This document shows positions 29,007 through 42,183 of a DNA stretch of 64,000 nt, one piece after another; position 1 is the first letter of the stretch, and each line of letters opens with the position of its first letter. Below the pieces are notes generated by a model. The model saw nothing but the letters and a program-made list of their open reading frames with translations, ran no database searches and had not been told where the DNA came from. Both the position numbers and the translations under genes were made by a program. This DNA comes from Kordia sp. SMS9 (GTDB taxonomy: Bacteria > Bacteroidota > Bacteroidia > Flavobacteriales > Flavobacteriaceae): assembly GCF_003352465.1 (NCBI RefSeq), contig NZ_CP031153.1:546465-610464 (forward strand). The letters run 5' to 3'.

Positions 29007-30014
29007 ATGTTTAAAAAATATAATAGTATCGAAAATACCTACCGTGAAAAGGCAACCGAACAAGTATATCTTCACGGGTATGGAAACGATGTATTTGTGG
29101 TACAAGAAAAAGTACATGGCGCTAATTTTTCTTTCATTACGGATGGAGATACAATTAGAGTTGCCAAACGTACATGTCTAATTGCAGAAGATGAAAACTT
29201 CAACAATCACAGATATGTTTTACACAAATATGAAAAAGCAATTACAGGGCTTTTCAAACGTGTAAAGAACGATTTTCCAGAAACAGAAATGATCACTGTT
29301 TTTGGTGAAATTTTCGGAGGAAGCTATCCGCATGCGGAGGTAGAAAAGATCGATGGAATGGTTCGCATTCAAAAAGGTGTTTTTTACAGTCCAGAAAATG
29401 ACTTTTACGCGTTTGATATTTGTATCAATCACACGCAATATCTTGATGTTACCATCGCGAACACATACTTTGAAGCAACAGGAATGTTGTATGCAAAAAC
29501 ACTTTTTGCAGGAACCTTTAGCGAATGTATGGCATATCCAAATGCATTTGAATCAAAAGTTCATGAATGGCTACATCTTCCAAAGATTGAAGACAATGTT
29601 TGTGAAGGAACCATCATCAAACCATTAACTAGCAAGCGTTTTGGAAATGGACAACGTGTTATTTTCAAAAACAAAAACGAAAAATGGTCTGAAAAGTCAC
29701 ATGAAAAACGATCAAGAGTTTCAAAGCCAAGTGCAATAGGAATGCTTTCACATACTGAAAAAGAATTGATGCACACGCTTTTGGGCTACGTGAACGAAAA
29801 TCGTTTGATGAATGTACAAAGTAAGCTTGGAGAGTTTTCACCAAAACAAACGGGAAAAACGATCGGATTGCTTGCCAAAGATGCACTAGAAGATTTTGTA
29901 AAAGATCATGAAAATGATTGGAATAACGTACAAAAAGAGCATCAAAAAGTATTAACAAAAATACTGAACAAAGAAGCAGTTACTGTCGTAAAAAAAGTAC
30001 TTCTTTTTAGGTAA
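29007..30014 (+). CDS. ATP-dependent RNA ligase, T4 Rnl2-like
   Basis: Nucleotidyltransferase motif I EKVHGANF (compare T4 Rnl2 EKIHGTN), motif IV VCEGTIIKP, motif V VIFKNKNEKW; 335 aa. Confidence 0.7.
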   Translation: MFKKYNSIENTYREKATEQVYLHGYGNDVFVVQEKVHGANFSFITDGDTIRVAKRTCLIAEDENFNNHRYVLHKYEKAITGLFKRVKNDFPETEMITVFGEIFGGSYPHAEVEKIDGMVRIQKGVFYSPENDFYAFDICINHTQYLDVTIANTYFEATGMLYAKTLFAGTFSECMAYPNAFESKVHEWLHLPKIEDNVCEGTIIKPLTSKRFGNGQRVIFKNKNEKWSEKSHEKRSRVSKPSAIGMLSHTEKELMHTLLGYVNENRLMNVQSKLGEFSPKQTGKTIGLLAKDALEDFVKDHENDWNNVQKEHQKVLTKILNKEAVTVVKKVLLFR

Positions 30015-30142: not shown

Positions 30143-30628
30143 ATGAAAATAACAATGAACAAGTGGCGAAACTTTTCAGGCAAAGTGTTCAATGAACCCA
30201 TAACTACACTTGTTGAGAATGCCATTGTAAAAGAACAAAAAGCTGGTCACAGATTGAAAATCTATGTGGGTTCGGATTCACAAGCCTATAAAACACATGT
30301 AAACTATGGTACTGTCATAGTGATTCTTAGAAAAGGAAAAGGTGGTTTTATGTTTATCAAAAACGAAAAAGGAACCACTAAAATAGGACTAAAAGAGCGT
30401 ATGCTAAGAGAGGTAGCACTATCCGTAGAAACAGCCTACCGCATTTGTGACCTATTGGAAAAATACAATATTGAATTGGAAGTTCATGCAGATATCAATA
30501 CAGACTCAAAATTTGAATCAAATGTGGCACTTAAAGAAGCGATGGGATATATCATAGGAATGGGCTTTGCATTCAAGGCAAAACCGTATGCTTTCGCAAG
30601 TTCTTCTTGTGCAGATAGTATTGTCTAA
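30143..30628 (+). CDS. Hypothetical protein (possibly RNase H-like YkuK/DUF458 fold)
   Basis: ORF track; YVGSDSQ motif is reminiscent of YkuK-family proteins; the assignment is uncertain. Confidence 0.4.
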   Translation: MKITMNKWRNFSGKVFNEPITTLVENAIVKEQKAGHRLKIYVGSDSQAYKTHVNYGTVIVILRKGKGGFMFIKNEKGTTKIGLKERMLREVALSVETAYRICDLLEKYNIELEVHADINTDSKFESNVALKEAMGYIIGMGFAFKAKPYAFASSSCADSIV

Positions 30629-30934: not shown

Positions 30935-31140
30935 CAAATATAATCCTCCATAGAGAAACATGGGTCATGGGTTCGAATCCCATTCTCGCAAGAGATAGTT
31001 CAGCGGTTAGAACAATGTTTTTGGATGTTGCCGGTTCGAGTCCGGTCAGTAGTTCCGAAAGGGCGGCTATTGTAACTCAATTGGTAGAGTACTACACTTT
31101 TAATGTAGATTGAAGTTCGATTTCTTCTAAAAAAATCACC
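30935..31140 (+). pseudogene. Three tRNA-like fragments (minihelix-like T-arm+acceptor; D-arm+T-arm without acceptor pairing; Lys(UUU)-like D/anticodon arms without acceptor)
   Basis: ATGGGTTCGAATCCCAT flanked by GAGAA/TTCTC; GTTCAGCGGTTAGAAC ... GCCGGTTCGAGTCCGGT; ACTCAATTGGTAGAGT + CTACA-CTTTTAA-TGTAG + AAGTTCGATTTCTTC. None folds into a complete cloverleaf. Confidence 0.4.
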
Positions 31141-32661: not shown

Positions 32662-33102
32662 ATGTCACGCCTATTACAAAAAATTACATACTTTTTTTCT
32701 TCTTTTTTTTCGGAAAAAGAGAATGAAAAACCCAAAGCAAATACACTAAAAATAAGTGATGAAATTGTGTTAAATGTTATGGAGCGATTGTCTCATTTTG
32801 AGCAAACAAAAGGGTTTTTAAAACCAATGACGTTACATAAATTGGCAAAAAAACTAAAAACAAATCCTAAATATTTATCAAGAATCATCAATGATCAATA
32901 TCAGAAGAACTATAGTTCCTACATCAACGATTTGCGTATTTCCTACTTACTAAAAGCATTGGAAAACGATGATTCGTTAAAAAAAGTAACCGTAAAATCA
33001 CTAGCAAAAAAGTTAGGATTTGGCAATACAGAATCCTTCGCAAAAGCATTTAAAAAGTATACAGGAGTCAATCCTTCTGTCTATTTAAATAGCTTGCCAT
33101 AA
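32662..33102 (+). CDS. AraC-family transcriptional regulator (short, HTH domain)
   Basis: C-terminal KSLAKKLGFGNTESFAKAFKKYTGVNPSVY is the AraC-type HTH signature. Confidence 0.75.
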   Translation: MSRLLQKITYFFSSFFSEKENEKPKANTLKISDEIVLNVMERLSHFEQTKGFLKPMTLHKLAKKLKTNPKYLSRIINDQYQKNYSSYINDLRISYLLKALENDDSLKKVTVKSLAKKLGFGNTESFAKAFKKYTGVNPSVYLNSLP

Positions 33103-33405: not shown

Positions 33406-34977
33406 GTGTATTGTAGAACTTTGATACACTCTAATCAACCTCAACACTGTATGGAATCTAGCCAAGAAAACACACCGCAAACTGATACAATCGAAATCAA
33501 AGTCTATGTCCCAATCAACGAAGTGACAGAGCGACAAAAGGGAATGATTGACAATGCTATTGCCAAACACCCTAGAGATCGAAAATACCTCTCAAACTCA
33601 GCGCATTCAGAAATTTTTGCTCCTAGTAAAAATGATGCCAACGACATTATTGAACATGCACAAGCTCAGAACTGGGAAGTAGATTTCAATGAAAAAGCTC
33701 GTAAAATTACGATCAAAATAAACTCAGAAGATATTGCTGACCAAAATAATCCTGTTACCCTTGATACGCTTCAATTTCTAAGTTCACAAGGAGATATTCA
33801 CATGGAAGTACTTGGTGAAGATCAACATGCAAAAGCCGAAGACATTACAGATCCTACACAAAAAACAGGCTTTGTAAAAAGTAATCAAGAACAACGCGTA
33901 GGTCGTGGACGCCAAATTCCAATTCAAGAACCTGCACACGGATACAGCGTCTTAGAAATTGCAGAAAGCTACAACTTCCCTGATGGTGATGGCGAAGGAC
34001 AAACCATAGGAATTATAGAATTAGGTGGAGAAGTACAGCAAAGCGACTTGGAAAAATTCTTTGCAGAATACAACACGCCAATTCCAGAAATTCAAATTGT
34101 GGGCAAACCAACTACAACTCCCGTAAATGATAACGTAGAAGTAACTGCAGACATTCAAGTAGCTGGAATCTTAGCGCCAAAAGCAAAGTTTGTCATCTAT
34201 TACGGAACTACCATCTTAGAAGCAATGAAAGCAGCATTGGCAGATACTGAAAACAAACTAACCGTCATTTCCATCAGTTGGGCAGGATCTGAATTGGGAT
34301 ATGCGCAACAAGAAATTATAGAACTCAACAATGTTTTTCATGAAGCTTCCTTAAAAGGAATTACTGTAGTGGGCGCTTCGGGCGATAATGGTGCTTTAAA
34401 CAACAAAGCATATGCAAATGTAAATGTGCCTGTAAACTCTCCGTATGTACTCGCTTGTGGCGGAACACAAACCTATATTACAGATGATAAAATTGCAGCA
34501 GAAGTTGTATGGAACGAATCTACGCAACAATCGCAAATAGGATCTGGTGGCGGATTCAGTCAGCGTATTTCCCAACAACAATATCAAATAAAATCTTCAC
34601 AAGAATACATTCAAAAATTTCCAAAATTTGCATCTTACCATCAAGCTGGCGGAAGAGGAATTCCAGACATTGCTGCAAATGCGGCAGATGCTTCGGGCTA
34701 TAGTATTGTTTTTCAAGGTCAATGGGTTAAAGTTGGCGGAACCAGTTTAGCAACACCACTTTGGGCTGCTCTAATCGGGCGTATGAATCAAAACTTAGGA
34801 TACCGATTAGGATTTATAAATCCATACTTATATGAGTTAATGGGTTCTTCGTCATTTCATCAAATTTTAGAAGGAAACAACAACCTCTATGTTGCCTCGG
34901 AAGGATGGAATCCATGTACAGGATTAGGCACGCCTGATGGAAAAGAACTAATGCATTCCATTGATAGTTTAGAATAA
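33406..34977 (+). CDS. S53 (sedolisin/kumamolisin-like) serine-carboxyl peptidase with pro-domain, no signal peptide
   Basis: YSVLEIAESYNFPDGDGEGQTIGIIELGG (start of the mature S53 domain), GASGDNGA (oxyanion Asp box), GGTSLATPLWAALIGRMNQ (catalytic Ser). The N-terminal ~180 aa form a pro-segment, and no secretion signal is present. Confidence 0.8.
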   Translation: MYCRTLIHSNQPQHCMESSQENTPQTDTIEIKVYVPINEVTERQKGMIDNAIAKHPRDRKYLSNSAHSEIFAPSKNDANDIIEHAQAQNWEVDFNEKARKITIKINSEDIADQNNPVTLDTLQFLSSQGDIHMEVLGEDQHAKAEDITDPTQKTGFVKSNQEQRVGRGRQIPIQEPAHGYSVLEIAESYNFPDGDGEGQTIGIIELGGEVQQSDLEKFFAEYNTPIPEIQIVGKPTTTPVNDNVEVTADIQVAGILAPKAKFVIYYGTTILEAMKAALADTENKLTVISISWAGSELGYAQQEIIELNNVFHEASLKGITVVGASGDNGALNNKAYANVNVPVNSPYVLACGGTQTYITDDKIAAEVVWNESTQQSQIGSGGGFSQRISQQQYQIKSSQEYIQKFPKFASYHQAGGRGIPDIAANAADASGYSIVFQGQWVKVGGTSLATPLWAALIGRMNQNLGYRLGFINPYLYELMGSSSFHQILEGNNNLYVASEGWNPCTGLGTPDGKELMHSIDSLE

Positions 34978-35015: not shown

Positions 35016-35450
35016 ATGACTAAAAAATTGGCATTAGATGAACTTCCTAAACGTCTCACTATAGATGGTAAAAAAATAGACGATATGCTAATGATCTATG
35101 GTTTTGTGGCTCCAGGAACAGCAGAAAACAACATCAAATTCTACCTAGATCCTTCTTTGAAAACATCAGTAGTTATTAACGATGAAGATATCATTCACCA
35201 TGCAAAAGTGAACAAGTCGCACAATCCTATTGGTGGAACAGTCATTTGGGTTAAAAATGCAGCTAAGTACATACAAGGAAACGCAACACCAGCACAGGCA
35301 GTAGCAAACATACAAGCACAACAACATGCTGAACAATTTTTCCAAGGAGACATTTATCAACAATATGCAAACACTGTTCAAGGAAATACCCAACCAAAAC
35401 CACAAAACCCTTATGCACCAGTTTGTGGATGCGGAAAATGCGAACAGTAA
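35016..35450 (+). CDS. Hypothetical 144-aa protein with Ala/Gln-rich segment and C-terminal CGCGKC
   Basis: ORF track. TPAQAVANIQAQQHAEQ resembles the AQAQ punctuation of the downstream precursor. The C-terminus reads PVCGCGKCEQ. Confidence 0.5.
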   Translation: MTKKLALDELPKRLTIDGKKIDDMLMIYGFVAPGTAENNIKFYLDPSLKTSVVINDEDIIHHAKVNKSHNPIGGTVIWVKNAAKYIQGNATPAQAVANIQAQQHAEQFFQGDIYQQYANTVQGNTQPKPQNPYAPVCGCGKCEQ

Positions 35451-35542: not shown

Positions 35543-36850
35543 ATGTTTACATTTTTTCACGGATGTGGAATTCCGCCTATCACAGTAACATGTGGTCAAG
35601 GTGGTGCACATGCACAGAATGTTGGACCTACGGGGACATTCGGTTGTACACAACCAGGTCATTGTTTAGGCCCAACAGGAACGCAAGGTTGTACAGTAGC
35701 TACTGCGCCACCACATTGCTTAATTGGACCTACGGGAACGCAAGGTTGTACGCAACCAGGTCATTGTGTTGGACCTACTGGAACGTATGGATGTACAGTA
35801 GTTGGACCAACAGGAACACAAGGCTGTACACAACCACAAACTATTTTACCTCCAACTATTGGATGTATTACAGTTACAACAACAGTAGTAACACATGCGC
35901 AAGCACAAGCTAATGTACCTAACACTATTGGATGTACAGCTATTACACCTTGTCCTACTTTACCTTGTCCACAAGGTGGAAATGCACAAGCGCAAACTAT
36001 TTTACCGCCAACATTACCTCCAGCATGCGTACCTCATACAGTAGGATGTACGGCTATTACGCCATGTGTAACAATTGGTGGTCATGCACAAGCACAAACT
36101 GTTCCACGTCCATCTGCCATTTGTGCAACAGCTATTGCATGCACAATTACGACAGCTCCACAGGCTGCACAAGCACAAACTATTGGTATTACTGGATGGC
36201 ATGGATGCACTGTGGTTGGACCAACAGGAACACAAGGATGTACAGTTGTAGGACCGACAGGTTACCAAGGTTGTCTAACACCAACAGGAACACCTCCAGC
36301 TACAGTTTGCCCAGGTGGTAATGCACAAGCACAAACAATCGGTGTTACGGGATGGCATGGTTGCACAGTTGTAGGACCAACTGGTTATCTAGGATGTTTA
36401 ACTCCAACAGGAACGCCTCCAGCTACAGTTTGCCCAGGTGGTAATGCACAAGCACAAAACGTAGGACCAACAGGATGGGAAGGTTGTCACCAACAAAACA
36501 CGCTTGCTACTGTTTGCACACAAATTGATTGTGGCGGACCAACACACCTTTTAGGTTGTACAGGTTACGAAGGTTGCCTAACTCCAACAGGAACGCCTCC
36601 AGCTACAGTTTGCCCAGGCGGCGATGCACAGGCACAGACTCTTGGTCATACAGCGTATGAAGGTTGTGGACAGCATGGAACAGAAGCTACGGTATGTACA
36701 CAAATTGGATGCGGACCAACACATCTTTTAGGATGTACTGGATATGAAGGATGTCATAATGGAGGAAATGCTCAGGCACAAATTCATAGTATTCCTGTAG
36801 CAGACTGTATTCCTACACGTAGTTGTACAGGAGCTTGGCCAGTATGTTAA
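35543..36850 (+). CDS. 435-aa Cys/Thr/Gly/Pro-rich multi-cassette polypeptide (candidate multi-core RiPP/lanthipeptide precursor)
   Basis: No signal peptide (MFTFFHGCGIPP...). About nine segments are separated by the conserved punctuation (P)GG[NHD]AQAQ[TN][IVL]. The segments are dominated by Cys, Thr, Gly, Pro (for example TIGVTGWHGCTVVGPTGYLGCLTPTGTPPATVCP). Two cassettes are nearly identical. The other-frame ORFs 35563-36321 are artefacts of this repetitive DNA. Confidence 0.55.
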   Translation: MFTFFHGCGIPPITVTCGQGGAHAQNVGPTGTFGCTQPGHCLGPTGTQGCTVATAPPHCLIGPTGTQGCTQPGHCVGPTGTYGCTVVGPTGTQGCTQPQTILPPTIGCITVTTTVVTHAQAQANVPNTIGCTAITPCPTLPCPQGGNAQAQTILPPTLPPACVPHTVGCTAITPCVTIGGHAQAQTVPRPSAICATAIACTITTAPQAAQAQTIGITGWHGCTVVGPTGTQGCTVVGPTGYQGCLTPTGTPPATVCPGGNAQAQTIGVTGWHGCTVVGPTGYLGCLTPTGTPPATVCPGGNAQAQNVGPTGWEGCHQQNTLATVCTQIDCGGPTHLLGCTGYEGCLTPTGTPPATVCPGGDAQAQTLGHTAYEGCGQHGTEATVCTQIGCGPTHLLGCTGYEGCHNGGNAQAQIHSIPVADCIPTRSCTGAWPVC

Positions 36851-36908: not shown

Positions 36909-38027
36909 TTGCAGGCAGCTTTCAAAACTCAAAAAACTATTTTTATGCGCTTAACGAAAAAAAACATCACTCATTACCTACTAGACAAAGGATTTTTAGA
37001 ACCTACATCCTTTATGTCAGGAGAGTATATGCTTACGCAAACTCAAAGTAGAAACTCCATCTTTAAAATTCAACAACAACAAGACAAAGGATTATTTGTT
37101 AAGCAACTCATCGCGCAAGATGCTACAAATAGCTACTTGATGCAGAAAGATGCCACAAGTCACTATTTAATTCATCAATCAGATTTATATAAAGAAACCG
37201 CAACACATATTCCTGAATATTACGGGTACGATCCGTATCATAACATTTTAGTCACGGAATATTTTGCAAACACCAAAAACATACACGAAGTTGTTTATCG
37301 TGATAAAAAATTATCAGAATCACACGCAGTAAAAATGGCGCATATATTAGCTTCGTTTCATTTTGATATTACAAAAGAGATTAAAAATAATAGTTCGCTT
37401 CAATTCTTCAGTAAACAAATTCCGTGGATTTTAAACACAAATCAACTACTAAACAACAACTCCCAAAGTATTAATAATGCTGTCATTGCAGAAATTCACA
37501 AACATCAAGATTTGGTGAAACGCATGGACAAAGTGGCTTCGCAGTGGGAAACTTCAAGCTTGATTCATGGAGATATTAAGTGGATGAATTTCATCGTAAT
37601 GCCAAATAATGAAGAGGTAAAACTCATTGATTGGGAAATTGCCGATTTAGGCGATCCACTATGGGATGTAGCCGGAGTTTTTCAATCGTATTTCTGTGCT
37701 TGGGTTTTAAGTTTTAACAATCAAAACATACAGGATCATCAACAAATGCCTGGTACGGAGTTTTTATCGGTAGAAACCATCACACCAGTTGTAAAATTGC
37801 TTTGGGAAACCTATGCATCTGCTCAAAAATTTACAGCTACCGAAGCTAGAGAAAAGTTACTCAAAACACTTTCCTACATGGCAGCTCGCATGATACAAAC
37901 TGCTTTTGAAAACAATATGGCGCAACAACAACAAATGTATCCGAATTCGGCACGTATCCTACAATTCTGCAATCATATTTTAGCAGATGTTGAAGGAATT
38001 GCAAAACAATGGAATTTAATAGACTAA
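36909..38027 (+). CDS. Aminoglycoside-phosphotransferase-fold (APH/CotS-like) kinase
   Basis: Catalytic loop HGDIKWMNF and IDWEIADLGDPLWDVAG (D-[FW]-E ... GDP..D of the APH fold); N-lobe Lys in GLFVKQL. 4-nt gap to the next ORF. Confidence 0.65.
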   Translation: MQAAFKTQKTIFMRLTKKNITHYLLDKGFLEPTSFMSGEYMLTQTQSRNSIFKIQQQQDKGLFVKQLIAQDATNSYLMQKDATSHYLIHQSDLYKETATHIPEYYGYDPYHNILVTEYFANTKNIHEVVYRDKKLSESHAVKMAHILASFHFDITKEIKNNSSLQFFSKQIPWILNTNQLLNNNSQSINNAVIAEIHKHQDLVKRMDKVASQWETSSLIHGDIKWMNFIVMPNNEEVKLIDWEIADLGDPLWDVAGVFQSYFCAWVLSFNNQNIQDHQQMPGTEFLSVETITPVVKLLWETYASAQKFTATEAREKLLKTLSYMAARMIQTAFENNMAQQQQMYPNSARILQFCNHILADVEGIAKQWNLID

Positions 38028-38031
38028 AACC

Positions 38032-39087
38032 ATGAAAAACAACACACATACAAAACAAGTACGTCAAATTATAGATGCTATTGAAATTACTTCGTTAACC
38101 ACGTATAAAGTACATGGTGAAGAAGAATATGTGCAAAATCAAATGCCGTATCAAACCTTTGCAGAAGATTTTAAATCGTTTGGAAGCAATGCCACTGTAG
38201 ATTCACAGCAACAGCGCACCAACTTAACCAACGCACTTACCAATACGATTTACGCTAAATTCTATTGTGGAATTCAAAATGGCAATCATACGTCAAAAAT
38301 TCCACCAAAAGTGGAACGAGATGAATTTATGAATCAACTTTCGCAGGCAAATACTTCCGTTAATGGACTCGACTATCATTGGAATATTTACAATATTGAC
38401 GCCAAAACAGGAAGCGCATACGTTCAAAAAAACGGCGAATTGCGTTGGTTACAACCGAACGGATTTCAATTTGTAAATCCGCAGCAAAAACAAGCAATCG
38501 TGAATACGAAAGTAAATCTAACACGTCAAAAAGAAAACAGAAACCTTCAACCTGTATTTTATCATGTGTTTAGCAATGAAATGTTTCCGCAGGAAGTCGA
38601 AATTGGAAGATTCTACTGGAACGTTTCGCCAGAAGGCGCTGCCAAACTCGTCAACTTGCTCACAACAACGTTGAATGATTATAAAATTCCATTTCAATTC
38701 AAATGCTTAAATCACCCTGAGTTGTATGTCCGATCCGACTCCGCCGTTTTATATGTAAGTAAAAAACACGTGCAATTAGTTTCCATCATTTTACAAAGTG
38801 TCATTCCGAATTTAGAACCGTATCTTGTAGACGAAATTCCGATGTTTACCAAACAGCTTCACAAAGGTGTTGGGTACGCAGAAGATCCTGGGAAAGGGCA
38901 AAGTTTTGGAATGAGTCGCTCATCTACCATTGCAGAAGCGTTGGTAGAAGCATTCTTGCAAGAACAAAATGCCACACAAAGGTTCAACACAGTGGTCAAT
39001 TCTTTATCGCGAAAAGGAATGTCACTCGATCGTTTGCACCTAAACAAACACACCGCATTAACGCCAACATTCCCAACATATGAATAG
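38032..39087 (+). CDS. Hypothetical 351-aa protein between kinase and LanC-like genes (candidate phospho-Ser/Thr lyase partner)
   Basis: ORF track; translationally coupled on both sides; no motif I can assign from memory. Confidence 0.5.
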   Translation: MKNNTHTKQVRQIIDAIEITSLTTYKVHGEEEYVQNQMPYQTFAEDFKSFGSNATVDSQQQRTNLTNALTNTIYAKFYCGIQNGNHTSKIPPKVERDEFMNQLSQANTSVNGLDYHWNIYNIDAKTGSAYVQKNGELRWLQPNGFQFVNPQQKQAIVNTKVNLTRQKENRNLQPVFYHVFSNEMFPQEVEIGRFYWNVSPEGAAKLVNLLTTTLNDYKIPFQFKCLNHPELYVRSDSAVLYVSKKHVQLVSIILQSVIPNLEPYLVDEIPMFTKQLHKGVGYAEDPGKGQSFGMSRSSTIAEALVEAFLQEQNATQRFNTVVNSLSRKGMSLDRLHLNKHTALTPTFPTYE

Positions 39088-40342
39088 TATAGAAACCACC
39101 CAAAAAACAGACGTACAAATGTATGTAAAAACGGCACACAATATTGGCAAGTACTTAGCCAAAGAAGCATTATGGTATAAAGATATGTGCAACTGGACTG
39201 GGCATGAAGTGGCGCCCGTTGGCGATACATTCCAAACGGTTGTCAAAGCGTGTAGCATTGATTTGTACAGCGGACTCACAGGAATTGCTTTATTTTTAGC
39301 AGAATTATATGATAAAACGCAAGATACAATCATTTTGCACACCTTAAATGGTGCCTTAAAAACCATCTATTCAAATTTAGAAGGTGACAAAGTAAACAAC
39401 TTCGGATACTACTCTGGAAAAATTGGATTGGGATATACGCTGTGGCGCATTGGGAAAAAATCAGCAAATGCGGAATTGGTAGACAAAGCACTTTCCATAG
39501 TAAAATCTGTCAAAGACAAAGACATTGCCGATTATGAAGTAGATATCATTTCTGGCGCTGCGGGATCCATCTCAGTGTTATTAAAACTATACTATGCCGA
39601 ACAAGACAATGACTTTTTGGAAATTGCTGAAAAATGTGGTCAATTTCTATTGAAAAAAGCGATCCGACAAGGTGAAATCTGTTCATGGATGACGGTTGAC
39701 AAATCCAATGCACTTACAGGCTATTCGCATGGCGCTTCGGGTATTGCTTCCGCATTGATGGAACTCTATGCAACCACAAAGAAAGAGGAATACTGGCATA
39801 CCGCTATGGGCGGATACAACTATGAGAAACAATGGTTCAATCAGCAAACTCAAAACTGGCCCGATTTACGTGAATATGATGGTTCCAAACCGTTAAACTA
39901 CGGCGTTATGTGGTGTCACGGCGCACCCGGAATTGCCATTGCGCAACTAAAAGCCTACGAAATGACGAAGCATGAATACTTTTTACAGGAAGCGAAAGTT
40001 GCTTTGGAAACTACCAAAAGAACAGTCATTCAAGAAATCAATATAAACTCGAAAGCAAACTTTTCACTATGTCACGGATTGGCTGGAAATGCTGATATAT
40101 TACTCTACGGAAGTCAAATACTAAATCATCCAGAATATGCGCAAATTGCCAAAAATGCAGGCGATTTCGGAATTGCACACTACGATGCAACAGGTGTGAT
40201 ATTTCCAAGTGGCGTGAACGATCCTAGCGGACTCACCATCGGACAAGAAGAAAATCCTGGACTCATGTTAGGACTTTCAGGAACAGGCATGTTTTACTTG
40301 CGTTTGGCAGATATCATGGTTCCTTCGGCGTTGGTGCCTTGA
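39080..40342 (+). CDS. Stand-alone LanC-like lanthionine cyclase domain protein
   Basis: All three LanC zinc-ligand motifs are present: GYSHGASGIASAL, VMWCHGAPGIAIAQL, SLCHGLAGNADILLYG. 420 aa; it overlaps the upstream stop by 8 nt. Confidence 0.8.
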   Translation: MNSIETTQKTDVQMYVKTAHNIGKYLAKEALWYKDMCNWTGHEVAPVGDTFQTVVKACSIDLYSGLTGIALFLAELYDKTQDTIILHTLNGALKTIYSNLEGDKVNNFGYYSGKIGLGYTLWRIGKKSANAELVDKALSIVKSVKDKDIADYEVDIISGAAGSISVLLKLYYAEQDNDFLEIAEKCGQFLLKKAIRQGEICSWMTVDKSNALTGYSHGASGIASALMELYATTKKEEYWHTAMGGYNYEKQWFNQQTQNWPDLREYDGSKPLNYGVMWCHGAPGIAIAQLKAYEMTKHEYFLQEAKVALETTKRTVIQEININSKANFSLCHGLAGNADILLYGSQILNHPEYAQIAKNAGDFGIAHYDATGVIFPSGVNDPSGLTIGQEENPGLMLGLSGTGMFYLRLADIMVPSALVP

Positions 40343-40678: not shown

Positions 40679-41014
40679 ATGGACAAATCATACTACAACC
40701 CAAGAGACTTAAAAAAATTCGGATCCATTACTGAATGGAGTGAAGAATTGGGAAACAAATTCTTTGAATACTACGGAAAAGTGTTTGAAGAAGGCGCGCT
40801 CACACCTCGCGAAAAATCACTCATCGCTTTAGCAGTAGCACATACCGAGCAATGTCCGTATTGCATTGATGCCTATTCACAAGACGGTTTGCAACGCGGA
40901 ATCACAAAAGAAGAAATGATGGAAGCCATTCACGTTGGTGCCGCCATCAAAAGTGGTGCAACATTAGTGCATGGTGTGCAAATGATGAACAAAGTAAATA
41001 AATTGGAAATGTGA
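40679..41014 (+). CDS. AhpD/carboxymuconolactone-decarboxylase-fold protein (arsenosugar-biosynthesis-associated peroxidase-like)
   Basis: 111 aa; CPYC within the helix-rich AhpD core (LIALAVAHTEQCPYCIDAY); immediately upstream of ArsS. Confidence 0.7.
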   Translation: MDKSYYNPRDLKKFGSITEWSEELGNKFFEYYGKVFEEGALTPREKSLIALAVAHTEQCPYCIDAYSQDGLQRGITKEEMMEAIHVGAAIKSGATLVHGVQMMNKVNKLEM

Positions 41015-41127
41015 TTTTTATAATTTCAAAAATTATAAAAATCATCCTGAGCACCGTCGAAGGATCTTTGAAACTCAAATACTCTGAATTACGTATATAA
41101 TTTAGAAACGAAACACAAAACATATAC

Positions 41128-42183
41128 ATGGCGACAAAGTCCCTACAAAAAAGAGAAAGTGAACTTGCAAGTACAAAACGACAACTGGAAATTCTGTCTA
41201 ACGGAATCTTTCAAAGTGGCGAATTGCCAACGTTTGCCAACAAAATAAAAGAAACAAATCAATTTCCCCTAAAGCCCAAAAAAATTGAAATCTTACAAAT
41301 CAATGTTGGGTATATGTGCAATCAAGTCTGTTCGCATTGTCATGTAGATGCAGGTCCCGACCGAAAGGAAATCATGACGCGTGAAACCATGCAACAATGT
41401 TTGGATGTCATTGAAAAAACGGGCGCACATACGCTCGATTTAACAGGTGGCGCACCCGAAATGAATCCACACTTTCGTTGGTTTGTAGAAGAAGCGTCTA
41501 AAATTGGTGTGAAAGATTTTATTGTACGATCAAATCTTACGATCATTCGTGCGAACAAAAAATACTACGATTTGCCAGAATTCTTCAAAAAACACAATGT
41601 ACATGTCGTTTCTTCCATGCCGCACTGGACACGTGGAAAAACGGACAAACAACGTGGCGACGGTGTTTTTGACAAATCTATCAAAGCCTTACAAGAACTC
41701 AACGCAGTTGGCTACGGAATGCCCGATAGCGATTTGCGATTAGACTTGGTATACAATCCGTCAGGAGCGTTTTTACCGGGAGATCAAACAGCGATGGAAA
41801 AAGATTTCAAAAAAGCCTTATTCGACGATTTCGGCATTCAATTTCACAACCTATTTGCCATTACTAACTTGCCGATCAGTCGTTTTTTGGATTACCTTAT
41901 TGCTTCTGAAAACTATGAAGATTATATGTACTCTTTGGTGGAAGCGTTCAATCCGGGCGCGGTGACAAATGTCATGTGCACCAATACCATTTCCGTAAGT
42001 TGGGACGGTTGGTTGTACGATTGCGATTTCAACCAAATGCTCGATTTAAAAGTAGCAAGCAAGGTAAAACACATTTCAGAATACAACGAAGAACTATTAC
42101 AAAACAGAAACATCATCATCTCTCAACACTGTTATGGTTGCACCGCTGGCGCAGGAAGCAGTTGTCAAGGAAGTGTTGCTTAA
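41128..42183 (+). CDS. arsS: Radical SAM protein ArsS (rSAM/Cys-rich-domain, arsenosugar biosynthesis)
   Basis: CNQVCSHC (CxxxCxxC) radical-SAM cluster motif and a C-terminal Cys-rich tail CYGCTAGAGSSCQGSVA. There is no in-frame TGA, so it is the Cys form, not the Sec form. Confidence 0.75.
   Translation: MATKSLQKRESELASTKRQLEILSNGIFQSGELPTFANKIKETNQFPLKPKKIEILQINVGYMCNQVCSHCHVDAGPDRKEIMTRETMQQCLDVIEKTGAHTLDLTGGAPEMNPHFRWFVEEASKIGVKDFIVRSNLTIIRANKKYYDLPEFFKKHNVHVVSSMPHWTRGKTDKQRGDGVFDKSIKALQELNAVGYGMPDSDLRLDLVYNPSGAFLPGDQTAMEKDFKKALFDDFGIQFHNLFAITNLPISRFLDYLIASENYEDYMYSLVEAFNPGAVTNVMCTNTISVSWDGWLYDCDFNQMLDLKVASKVKHISEYNEELLQNRNIIISQHCYGCTAGAGSSCQGSVA

Follow-up and report, generated by a model that had tools for sequence, protein, structure and literature searches.

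A putative stand-alone leader protein for a leaderless multi-cassette lanthipeptide precursor in Kordia

Gene content of the locus

The stretch of DNA analysed here (hereafter, the window) comprises 64,000 nucleotides of the Kordia sp. SMS9 genome (NZ_CP031153.1, positions 546,465 to 610,464) and includes, on the forward strand at positions 35016-35450, an ORF for a protein of 144 amino acids that ends in PVCGCGKCEQ. Both the exact coordinates and the C-terminal end given for this ORF in a preliminary description of the sequence were confirmed. The ORF is the third gene of an operon encoded entirely on the forward strand. The operon opens with an AraC-family regulator (32662-33102; Pfam HTH_18), which heads Kordia-type clusters, followed by an S8/S53 peptidase of the pro-kumamolisin type (33406-34977; Pfam Peptidase_S8 and Pro-kuma_activ), separated from the 144-aa ORF by a gap of 38 nt. 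The start of the next gene, 92 nt beyond the end of the ORF, is that of a leaderless multi-cassette core protein of 435 aa (35543-36850), the presumed substrate of the cluster, with 40 Cys, 82 Ser/Thr and eight AQAQ delimiters. Three enzyme genes complete the operon, namely, an APH-family, LanK/LxmK-like kinase (36909-38027; Pfam APH, E = 1.2e-8), which is syntenic wherever the flanking sequence suffices and has LxmK as its best NCBIfam match, at 65 bits, under the cut-off of 315 for that model; a HopA1-family, LanY-like phospho-Ser/Thr lyase (38032-39087; Pfam HopA1, E = 3e-39); and a stand-alone LanC-like cyclase (39080-40342; Pfam LANC_like, E = 1e-67).

The same gene order, from AraC to LanC, was found in K. 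algicida OT-1 and K. periserrulae, and the most divergent homologue of the 144-aa protein (P0030) is embedded in the same order from AraC to the start of the cassette protein, which is the extent of its short contigs. The cassette proteins, of 313-435 aa, are conserved at both ends, and the cassettes between these ends differ in number and sequence. The N-terminus, M(F)TFFHGCGIPPxTxxC, is conserved in the window (35543-35600) and in four of the loci compared below (L001, L003, L008 and L013); in the window protein, this conserved N-terminus reads MFTFFHGCGIPP and the N-terminal peptide is MFTFFHGCGIPPITVTC. The C-terminal cassette, IPVA[DN]CIPTRSCTGAWPVC, is conserved in the window (36790-36850), L001 and L003, with variants in L008 and L013. 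In the window, tblastn detected neither the small protein nor the cassette protein a second time, BLASTP comparison of the 144-aa protein with the 435-aa precursor revealed no similarity (best E = 3.5), and scans of the region for promoters and terminators yielded sites no more numerous than in shuffled sequence.

Two features flank the operon. Downstream of LanC, at 40679-42183, lie a CMD-family gene and a radical-SAM/DUF3641 gene, which are syntenic in K. algicida and absent from synteny in K. periserrulae; because synteny is not kept in the latter species, both genes are probably outside the lanthipeptide cluster. Upstream, a tRNA-like element was identified at 31066-31135 of the forward strand (Rfam RF00005, 35.3 bits, E = 9e-5; no ARAGORN call), near an Rnl2-type RNA ligase (29007-30014) and an RNaseH-like ORF (30143-30628). 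This element may correspond to the tRNA-like module found in Y RNAs of the YrlA type because a Ro60/TROVE gene is present in the corresponding neighbourhood of K. algicida.

The 144-residue protein and its domain family

A database search retrieved 30 clusters of homologues that have the same length as the 144-aa protein and are 50-92% identical to it; the named ones all belong to Kordia or unclassified Bacteroidota, and the remainder are metagenome sequences. In the alignment of these sequences with the window protein, the C-G-C-G-x-C motif (CGCGKC in the window; residues 137-142, 35424-35441) is invariant in 31/31 sequences. The Cys-rich end to which the preliminary description had drawn attention thus held up, and conservation at this level points to a real, selected feature. 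The motif lies inside a short tail (residues 122-144, 35379-35447) that is predicted to be disordered and occupies the place where fused relatives (see below) have a core; counted with this tail in the window protein are T120, T125 and three Cys. Directly preceding the tail is a predicted amphipathic helix, AEQFFQGDIYQQYANTV (residues 105-121, 35328-35378), which is nearly invariant in Kordia and contains a putative enzyme-recognition motif, F-[FL]-[QE]-G-x-I; the conserved stretch in the 31 Kordia-type sequences is QFFQGDIYQQYxNT.

The helix is connected to the N-terminal part of the protein by a Q/A-rich linker (residues 91-104, 35286-35327), and the AQ-rich segment TPAQAVANIQAQQHAEQ comprises residues 91-107. 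This segment had been interpreted as an echo of the AQAQ punctuation of the cassette protein, an interpretation that the comparison does not sustain. The window protein contains one QAQ, one AQA and zero AQAQ; QAQ arises in 10% of composition-preserving shuffles, and QAQ together with AQA in 2.4%, so that the motif content is within chance. Among the 30 orthologues, AQAQ is present in only one and QAQ in eight, and the linker varies in length and falls in gap-rich, poorly conserved columns of the alignment; the conserved part, directly after the linker, consists of Q102-Q103 and the helix. Furthermore, the leader proteins from other lineages in which leader and core are separate genes (P0036, P0039, P0182 and P0033) have unrelated linkers, yet their cassette proteins share AQAQ-type delimiters.

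A profile built from the 31 Kordia-type sequences and searched against 1.84 billion representative proteins (hmmsearch, E ≤ 1e-3) matched 671 representatives. In almost all of the best 150 of the 671, the match covers the N-terminal ~115 residues, in proteins of 100-1000 aa, and most of the 149 non-Kordia matches contain the motif F-[FL]-[QE]-G-x-[IL] near residue 100. What follows this domain is, among the matches listed, a hypervariable tail of 40-760 aa, with ~10% Cys and rich in Ser/Thr/Pro, which is often repetitive, e.g. CPPPTQICPTHPLVCPPPT. An alignment of 35 diverse N-terminal regions (A2) contains six invariant positions (G29, L48, G73, G74, W78 and G111), and the window protein fits the family profile over its N-terminal ~115 residues, these invariant residues included. 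The combination of a conserved N-terminal module with a hypervariable, Cys/Thr-rich C-terminus is characteristic of RiPP precursors whose leaders are protein-like, and the 144-aa protein is almost certainly homologous to the N-terminal leader domains of such precursors. Residues 1-121, i.e. the predicted barrel described below and the helix FFQGDIYQQY, form part of a large family of unannotated leader domains of ~115 residues. Of the roles proposed earlier for the ORF, that of a leader-like partner gains support, by virtue of the match between its first ~120 residues and precursor N-terminal domains rather than of the AQ-rich segment.

The family comprises at least 671 clusters at 50% identity and is outside both Pfam and NCBIfam: neither database gave a match for the ORF, ten long relatives or, at E ≤ 0.01, the 35 leader domains, and PDB sequence searches with the Kordia-type and diverse profiles were likewise negative. 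The label DUF1330, attached by JGI to one member (P0009), was rejected after no Pfam match was obtained for the window protein (E ≤ 0.1) or for the 35 members (E ≤ 0.01). With the diverse alignment as query, a word-indexed protein search yielded few of the distant members, and a search for related loci with the narrow alignment recovered four loci.

With the Kordia-only alignment, AlphaFold produced a weak model (pLDDT 63), whereas the diverse alignment A2 yielded an AF2 model with a pLDDT of 80 overall and 89-95 over residues 21-80. The latter model consists of a short helix and a small five-stranded barrel, which together make up the core of the leader domain (residues 1-90, 35016-35285; strands 24-33, 39-43, 51-55, 59-64 and 75-80), followed by two helices, 92-108 and 112-121, in which the conserved motif lies. 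Foldseek comparison of both models with the PDB produced nothing significant (best E = 0.13, an SH3 domain), and we regard the SH3/PTB/OB-like matches as noise. The preliminary description had also considered an RRE/PqqD-like winged helix; the predicted fold includes no winged helix-turn-helix, and no PqqD-type match was obtained from Pfam, NCBIfam or PDB, so that, within the limits of prediction, assignment of the protein to these recognition elements is rejected.

Fused and split precursor architectures

In 10/10 distinct loci with enough downstream flank, the genes for APH, HopA1 and LanC directly follow the precursor gene or genes. In the split-type loci (the window, K. algicida L001, L003, L008 and L013), the leader domain and the core are encoded by separate genes; in the fused-type loci (L007, L009, L015, L017 and L018), both are parts of a single protein. 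L002, a second K. algicida contig with the same protein as L001, was counted once. The ORF is conserved in the orthologous clusters and showed no homology to a housekeeping family. The earlier characterization of the ORF as cluster-specific therefore stands with respect to its strict co-occurrence with the cluster; it does not stand with respect to Kordia, given that the domain is found also in MAGs labelled Saprospiraceae, Terriglobia and Ca. Dormiibacterota. More generally, the leader family is a marker of APH-HopA1-LanC lanthipeptide clusters in MAGs that carry the labels Bacteroidota or Acidobacteriota, among others.

Among the fused forms, a protein of 516 aa (P0059) and the precursors from Terriglobia (L018) and from a MAG labelled Ca. 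Dormiibacterota (L017) all have the enzyme trio downstream. A fused equivalent of the Kordia pair of proteins is P0130, a MAG protein of 916 aa in which the leader domain is fused to a multi-cassette core and which is followed by APH, HopA1 and LanC. BLASTP shows the core of P0130 to be a homologue of the leaderless protein of Kordia (E = 7e-20), and the two have in common a C-terminal CIPTxxCTG…C as well as the motifs TIGVTGWQGCTVVGPTGTQGCT, ATVCTQIxC and PTHLLGC. A neighbour-joining tree of the leader domains, which is weak, being based on ~115 residues, groups the short-tailed Kordia-type proteins together, with the exception of P0052, and places P0130 and P0161 as the fused proteins nearest to the split-type leaders. 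The idea that the Kordia tail is the ancestral first cassette is not supported, the comparison of the tail plus the core N-terminus with the P0130 junction being not significant (93/500 shuffles scored as high).

In the Saprospiraceae MAG locus L007 (10001-11323), two tandem precursors of 214 and 208 aa, with near-identical 115-aa leaders and divergent Cys/Pro-rich cores, precede APH, HopA1 and LanC; this tandem arrangement is the classic RiPP precursor pattern. The sequence TPY(E/G)M closes both L007 precursors and may serve as a conserved C-terminal signal for processing or export.

The window ORF has a tail of only ~25 residues and no substantial Cys/Ser/Thr-rich core in the same polypeptide; the long core is encoded in a separate ORF (35543-36850), and therefore the window ORF belongs to the split subtype. 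The same layout, a small leader protein followed by a separate leaderless Cys/Thr-rich ORF with its own Met, was found in at least five further lineages, among them L008 (P0182), L010 (P0033), L011/L012 (P0039) and L013/L014 (P0036). Another of these lineages is probably represented by P0052 (JGI 3300072015), where the next genes encode a 480-aa protein without a Pfam match and then an APH kinase. Leader and core genes are separated by spacers of 31-175 nt, and across lineages each of the three relative reading frames is represented, which rules out a programmed frameshift, read-through or assembly error and identifies the two as separate genes.

Given these architectures, we lean towards the view that the ORF is the leader half of a split lanthipeptide precursor, with the leader acting in trans. 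The composition of the tail bears on this view and on the main alternative, an ordinary, independent second precursor, in which the leader would direct the synthetase to its own short core (…NTVQGNT…PVCGCGKC) and the cassette protein would be recognised by other means. The three Cys and T120 are invariant in the Kordia-type proteins and are located where relatives have cores, which fits selection on the tail itself and is compatible also with a role as substrate; several relatives in sister lineages have tails that resemble genuine single cores (FTQxC...PxC), e.g. FTQYCEQTQAPIC and FTHTCVATQPPVC, and multiple precursors per cluster do occur elsewhere, as in L007. However, outside Kordia, the tails are not conserved, with 0-5 Cys, often in P-x-C, CxC or CC. 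The split-type leaders P0033 and P0039 have zero tail Cys and are still encoded upstream of leaderless Cys-rich ORFs, and the tail of the closely related P0038 (for which the tail sequence was compared) is also devoid of Cys. Within Kordia, the orthologues P0015 and P0022 have merely one or two tail Ser/Thr against three Cys. Moreover, on the reading as an independent second precursor, the 435-aa substrate would have no leader, although this is the very domain that P0130, the fused homologue of that substrate, employs. A second substrate, one of the options listed in the preliminary description, is accordingly possible for the short Cys tail and is insufficient as the sole explanation, in view of the Cys-free relatives of the same architecture; on the whole, we consider the second-precursor reading rather unlikely.

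The tail has the appearance of a core position that is residual or minimal and can be dispensed with, whereas the leader domain cannot, and because some split relatives of the same layout lack tail Cys, the leader domain serves as more than a substrate. The tail of P0039 (L011, 5957-6511), which consists of 67 residues, is Cys-free and rich in Lys/Ala/Pro/Ser, with the polycationic appearance of histone H1.

Could the small protein instead be unrelated to leaders and act through CxCxxC, as an RRE-like, immunity or small metal (Zn/Cu) protein? A CxCxxC at the C-terminus could plausibly bind metal and shows no variation in Kordia, and CGCGK is seen again in P0052, which ends in KCGCGKNHD, resembling the Kordia CGCGKC tail. 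This distantly placed family member may represent a split-type lineage that is independent of Kordia and has the CGCG motif in common with it. In sister lineages, however, the Cys cluster is missing or different and the leader domain is conserved, and the predicted fold and the profile searches described above offer nothing in favour of an RRE. Neither a signal peptide nor a membrane segment was found in the sequence of the 144-aa protein, leaving the immunity or chaperone role that had also been suggested unsupported. This explanation is, in our estimation, very improbable.

The split-type loci are further distinguished by the S53 peptidase gene, which lies directly upstream of the leader gene in every such locus with upstream sequence except for L010, where the 402 nt upstream of the leader gene contain no coding sequence. 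No S53 peptidase was found in any of the five fused-type loci, and in the split-type clusters, the peptidase is accompanied by AQAQ-type cassette delimiters, making it a likely candidate for the protease that releases the cassettes. The spacing of the two genes, with the leader gene 10-40 nt downstream of S53 in Kordia, L008, L011 and L013, and the lack of S53 in fused-type loci could be taken to indicate that the small protein is a partner of the peptidase, i.e. a substrate adaptor, inhibitor or chaperone that governs cassette release. Such a partnership seems improbable, considering that fused precursors, to which the domain is ancestral, occur in clusters without a nearby S53 gene, that L010 retains the leader gene with no coding sequence in the adjacent 402 nt, and that the protein is dissimilar to the peptidase and its propeptide.

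Proposed action of the leader protein and comparison with known systems

Leader peptides serve RiPP enzymes as the handle for substrate recognition. Under the split-precursor reading that we favour, the small protein would perform in trans the task that falls to its fused homologues in cis, namely, offering the synthetase a recognition element. The long multi-cassette core would, in the Kordia-type clade, have become a separate, leaderless downstream gene, with the leader keeping its ~25-residue tail. The leader protein would then bind the kinase, lyase and cyclase via the conserved helix and the barrel and would switch on or assemble these enzymes in trans; it might, in addition, dock the core protein by its conserved N-terminus, MFTFFHGCGIPP. 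The cassettes would subsequently be dehydrated and cyclised, and the S53 peptidase would cleave at the AQAQ delimiters. The three activities reside in separate proteins, so that a folded leader protein could also aid their assembly.

The contribution of the Cys tail to such a mechanism could be that of a residual mini-core or of a metal or docking site. In particular, the tail may help the protein to dock onto the conserved HGCG N-terminus of the core or onto the zinc site of LanC. The core N-terminus M(F)TFFHGCGIPP is common to three split lineages, and these are the ones with Cys-containing leader tails; in this small sample (n = 5), the coincidence is compatible with docking between tail and core and, equally, with simple relatedness. 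Alternatively, the core protein might be recognised unaided, through its own conserved N-terminus or its repeated GG-x-AQAQ elements.

To our knowledge, leaders are generally taken to be joined covalently to their cores, and activation in trans has so far been an in vitro engineering trick. The more general proposition, that a natural RiPP leader resides on a polypeptide other than that of the core and that a folded protein of ~120 residues activates or assembles a three-protein synthetase in trans for a leaderless substrate of 300-480 residues, is one that we put forward tentatively. If true, it would mean that evolution has used the trans-leader trick naturally; it would account for a leaderless 435-residue cassette protein as a substrate; and it would provide a genetically separable activator for the engineering of leader-free lanthipeptide libraries. 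No description of the leader family, or of a naturally separate RiPP leader, was found in the searchable literature, which covers few subscription journals.

A precedent is offered by the kinase-type class III enzyme ThurKC, which in vitro can be activated by a leader added in trans (PMC10604976). HopA1-APH pairs adjoining LanC, the Kordia HopA1 included, have been noted only bioinformatically, by Eyles et al. 2021 (PMC8153245). In the part of the supplement of that study that was accessible, the short peptide that RiPPER lists at the Kordia HopA1 locus is the CMD enzyme encoded downstream, and the leader and cassette proteins do not appear, so peptide-centred genome mining appears to have missed these precursors.

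Comparison with established RiPP systems reveals partial similarities in each case. The NHLP and Nif11 leaders of proteusins, prochlorosins and related precursors resemble the present family in having a long (~70-115 aa) conserved N-terminal region joined to hypervariable cores, in often occurring in several copies per cluster and in their spread across phyla. In sequence, they are unrelated (0/35 members of the family match any NCBIfam or Pfam model at E ≤ 0.01), and unlike them, the Kordia-family leader is predicted to form a five-stranded barrel with helices, is associated with APH, HopA1 and LanC, and is here separate from the main core.

Class III and IV lanthipeptides employ the same type of dehydration machinery, with kinase, phospho-lyase and cyclase activities. 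In the Kordia family, the most conserved element of the leader is the amphipathic helix F-[FL]-[QE]-G-x-I, and class III/IV leaders contain a helical LELQL-type motif that binds the kinase domain; we treat this resemblance as a lead only. In contrast to the Kordia leader, those of class III/IV are short peptides covalently joined to their cores, and the Kordia enzymes differ in being three separate proteins, with a kinase of the APH type, not the Ser/Thr-kinase fold, and a lyase of the HopA1 type.

The same kinase/lyase pair as in Kordia is found in class V (LanK, APH, and LanY, HopA1; lexapeptide and cacaoidin) and in the thioamitides (TsaC/TsaD). Class V, however, is defined as LanC-less, whereas the Kordia cluster encodes a canonical LanC, and its precursors are entirely unlike those of Kordia; together with the kinase score of 65 against the LxmK cut-off of 315 bits, the canonical LanC led us to reject the assignment of the cluster to class V. 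Finally, split borosins and the discrete RRE proteins of lasso peptides are alike in that a module fused in some lineages is separate in others; in those systems, the separated module is the enzyme or the RRE, whereas in Kordia it would be the substrate's own leader.
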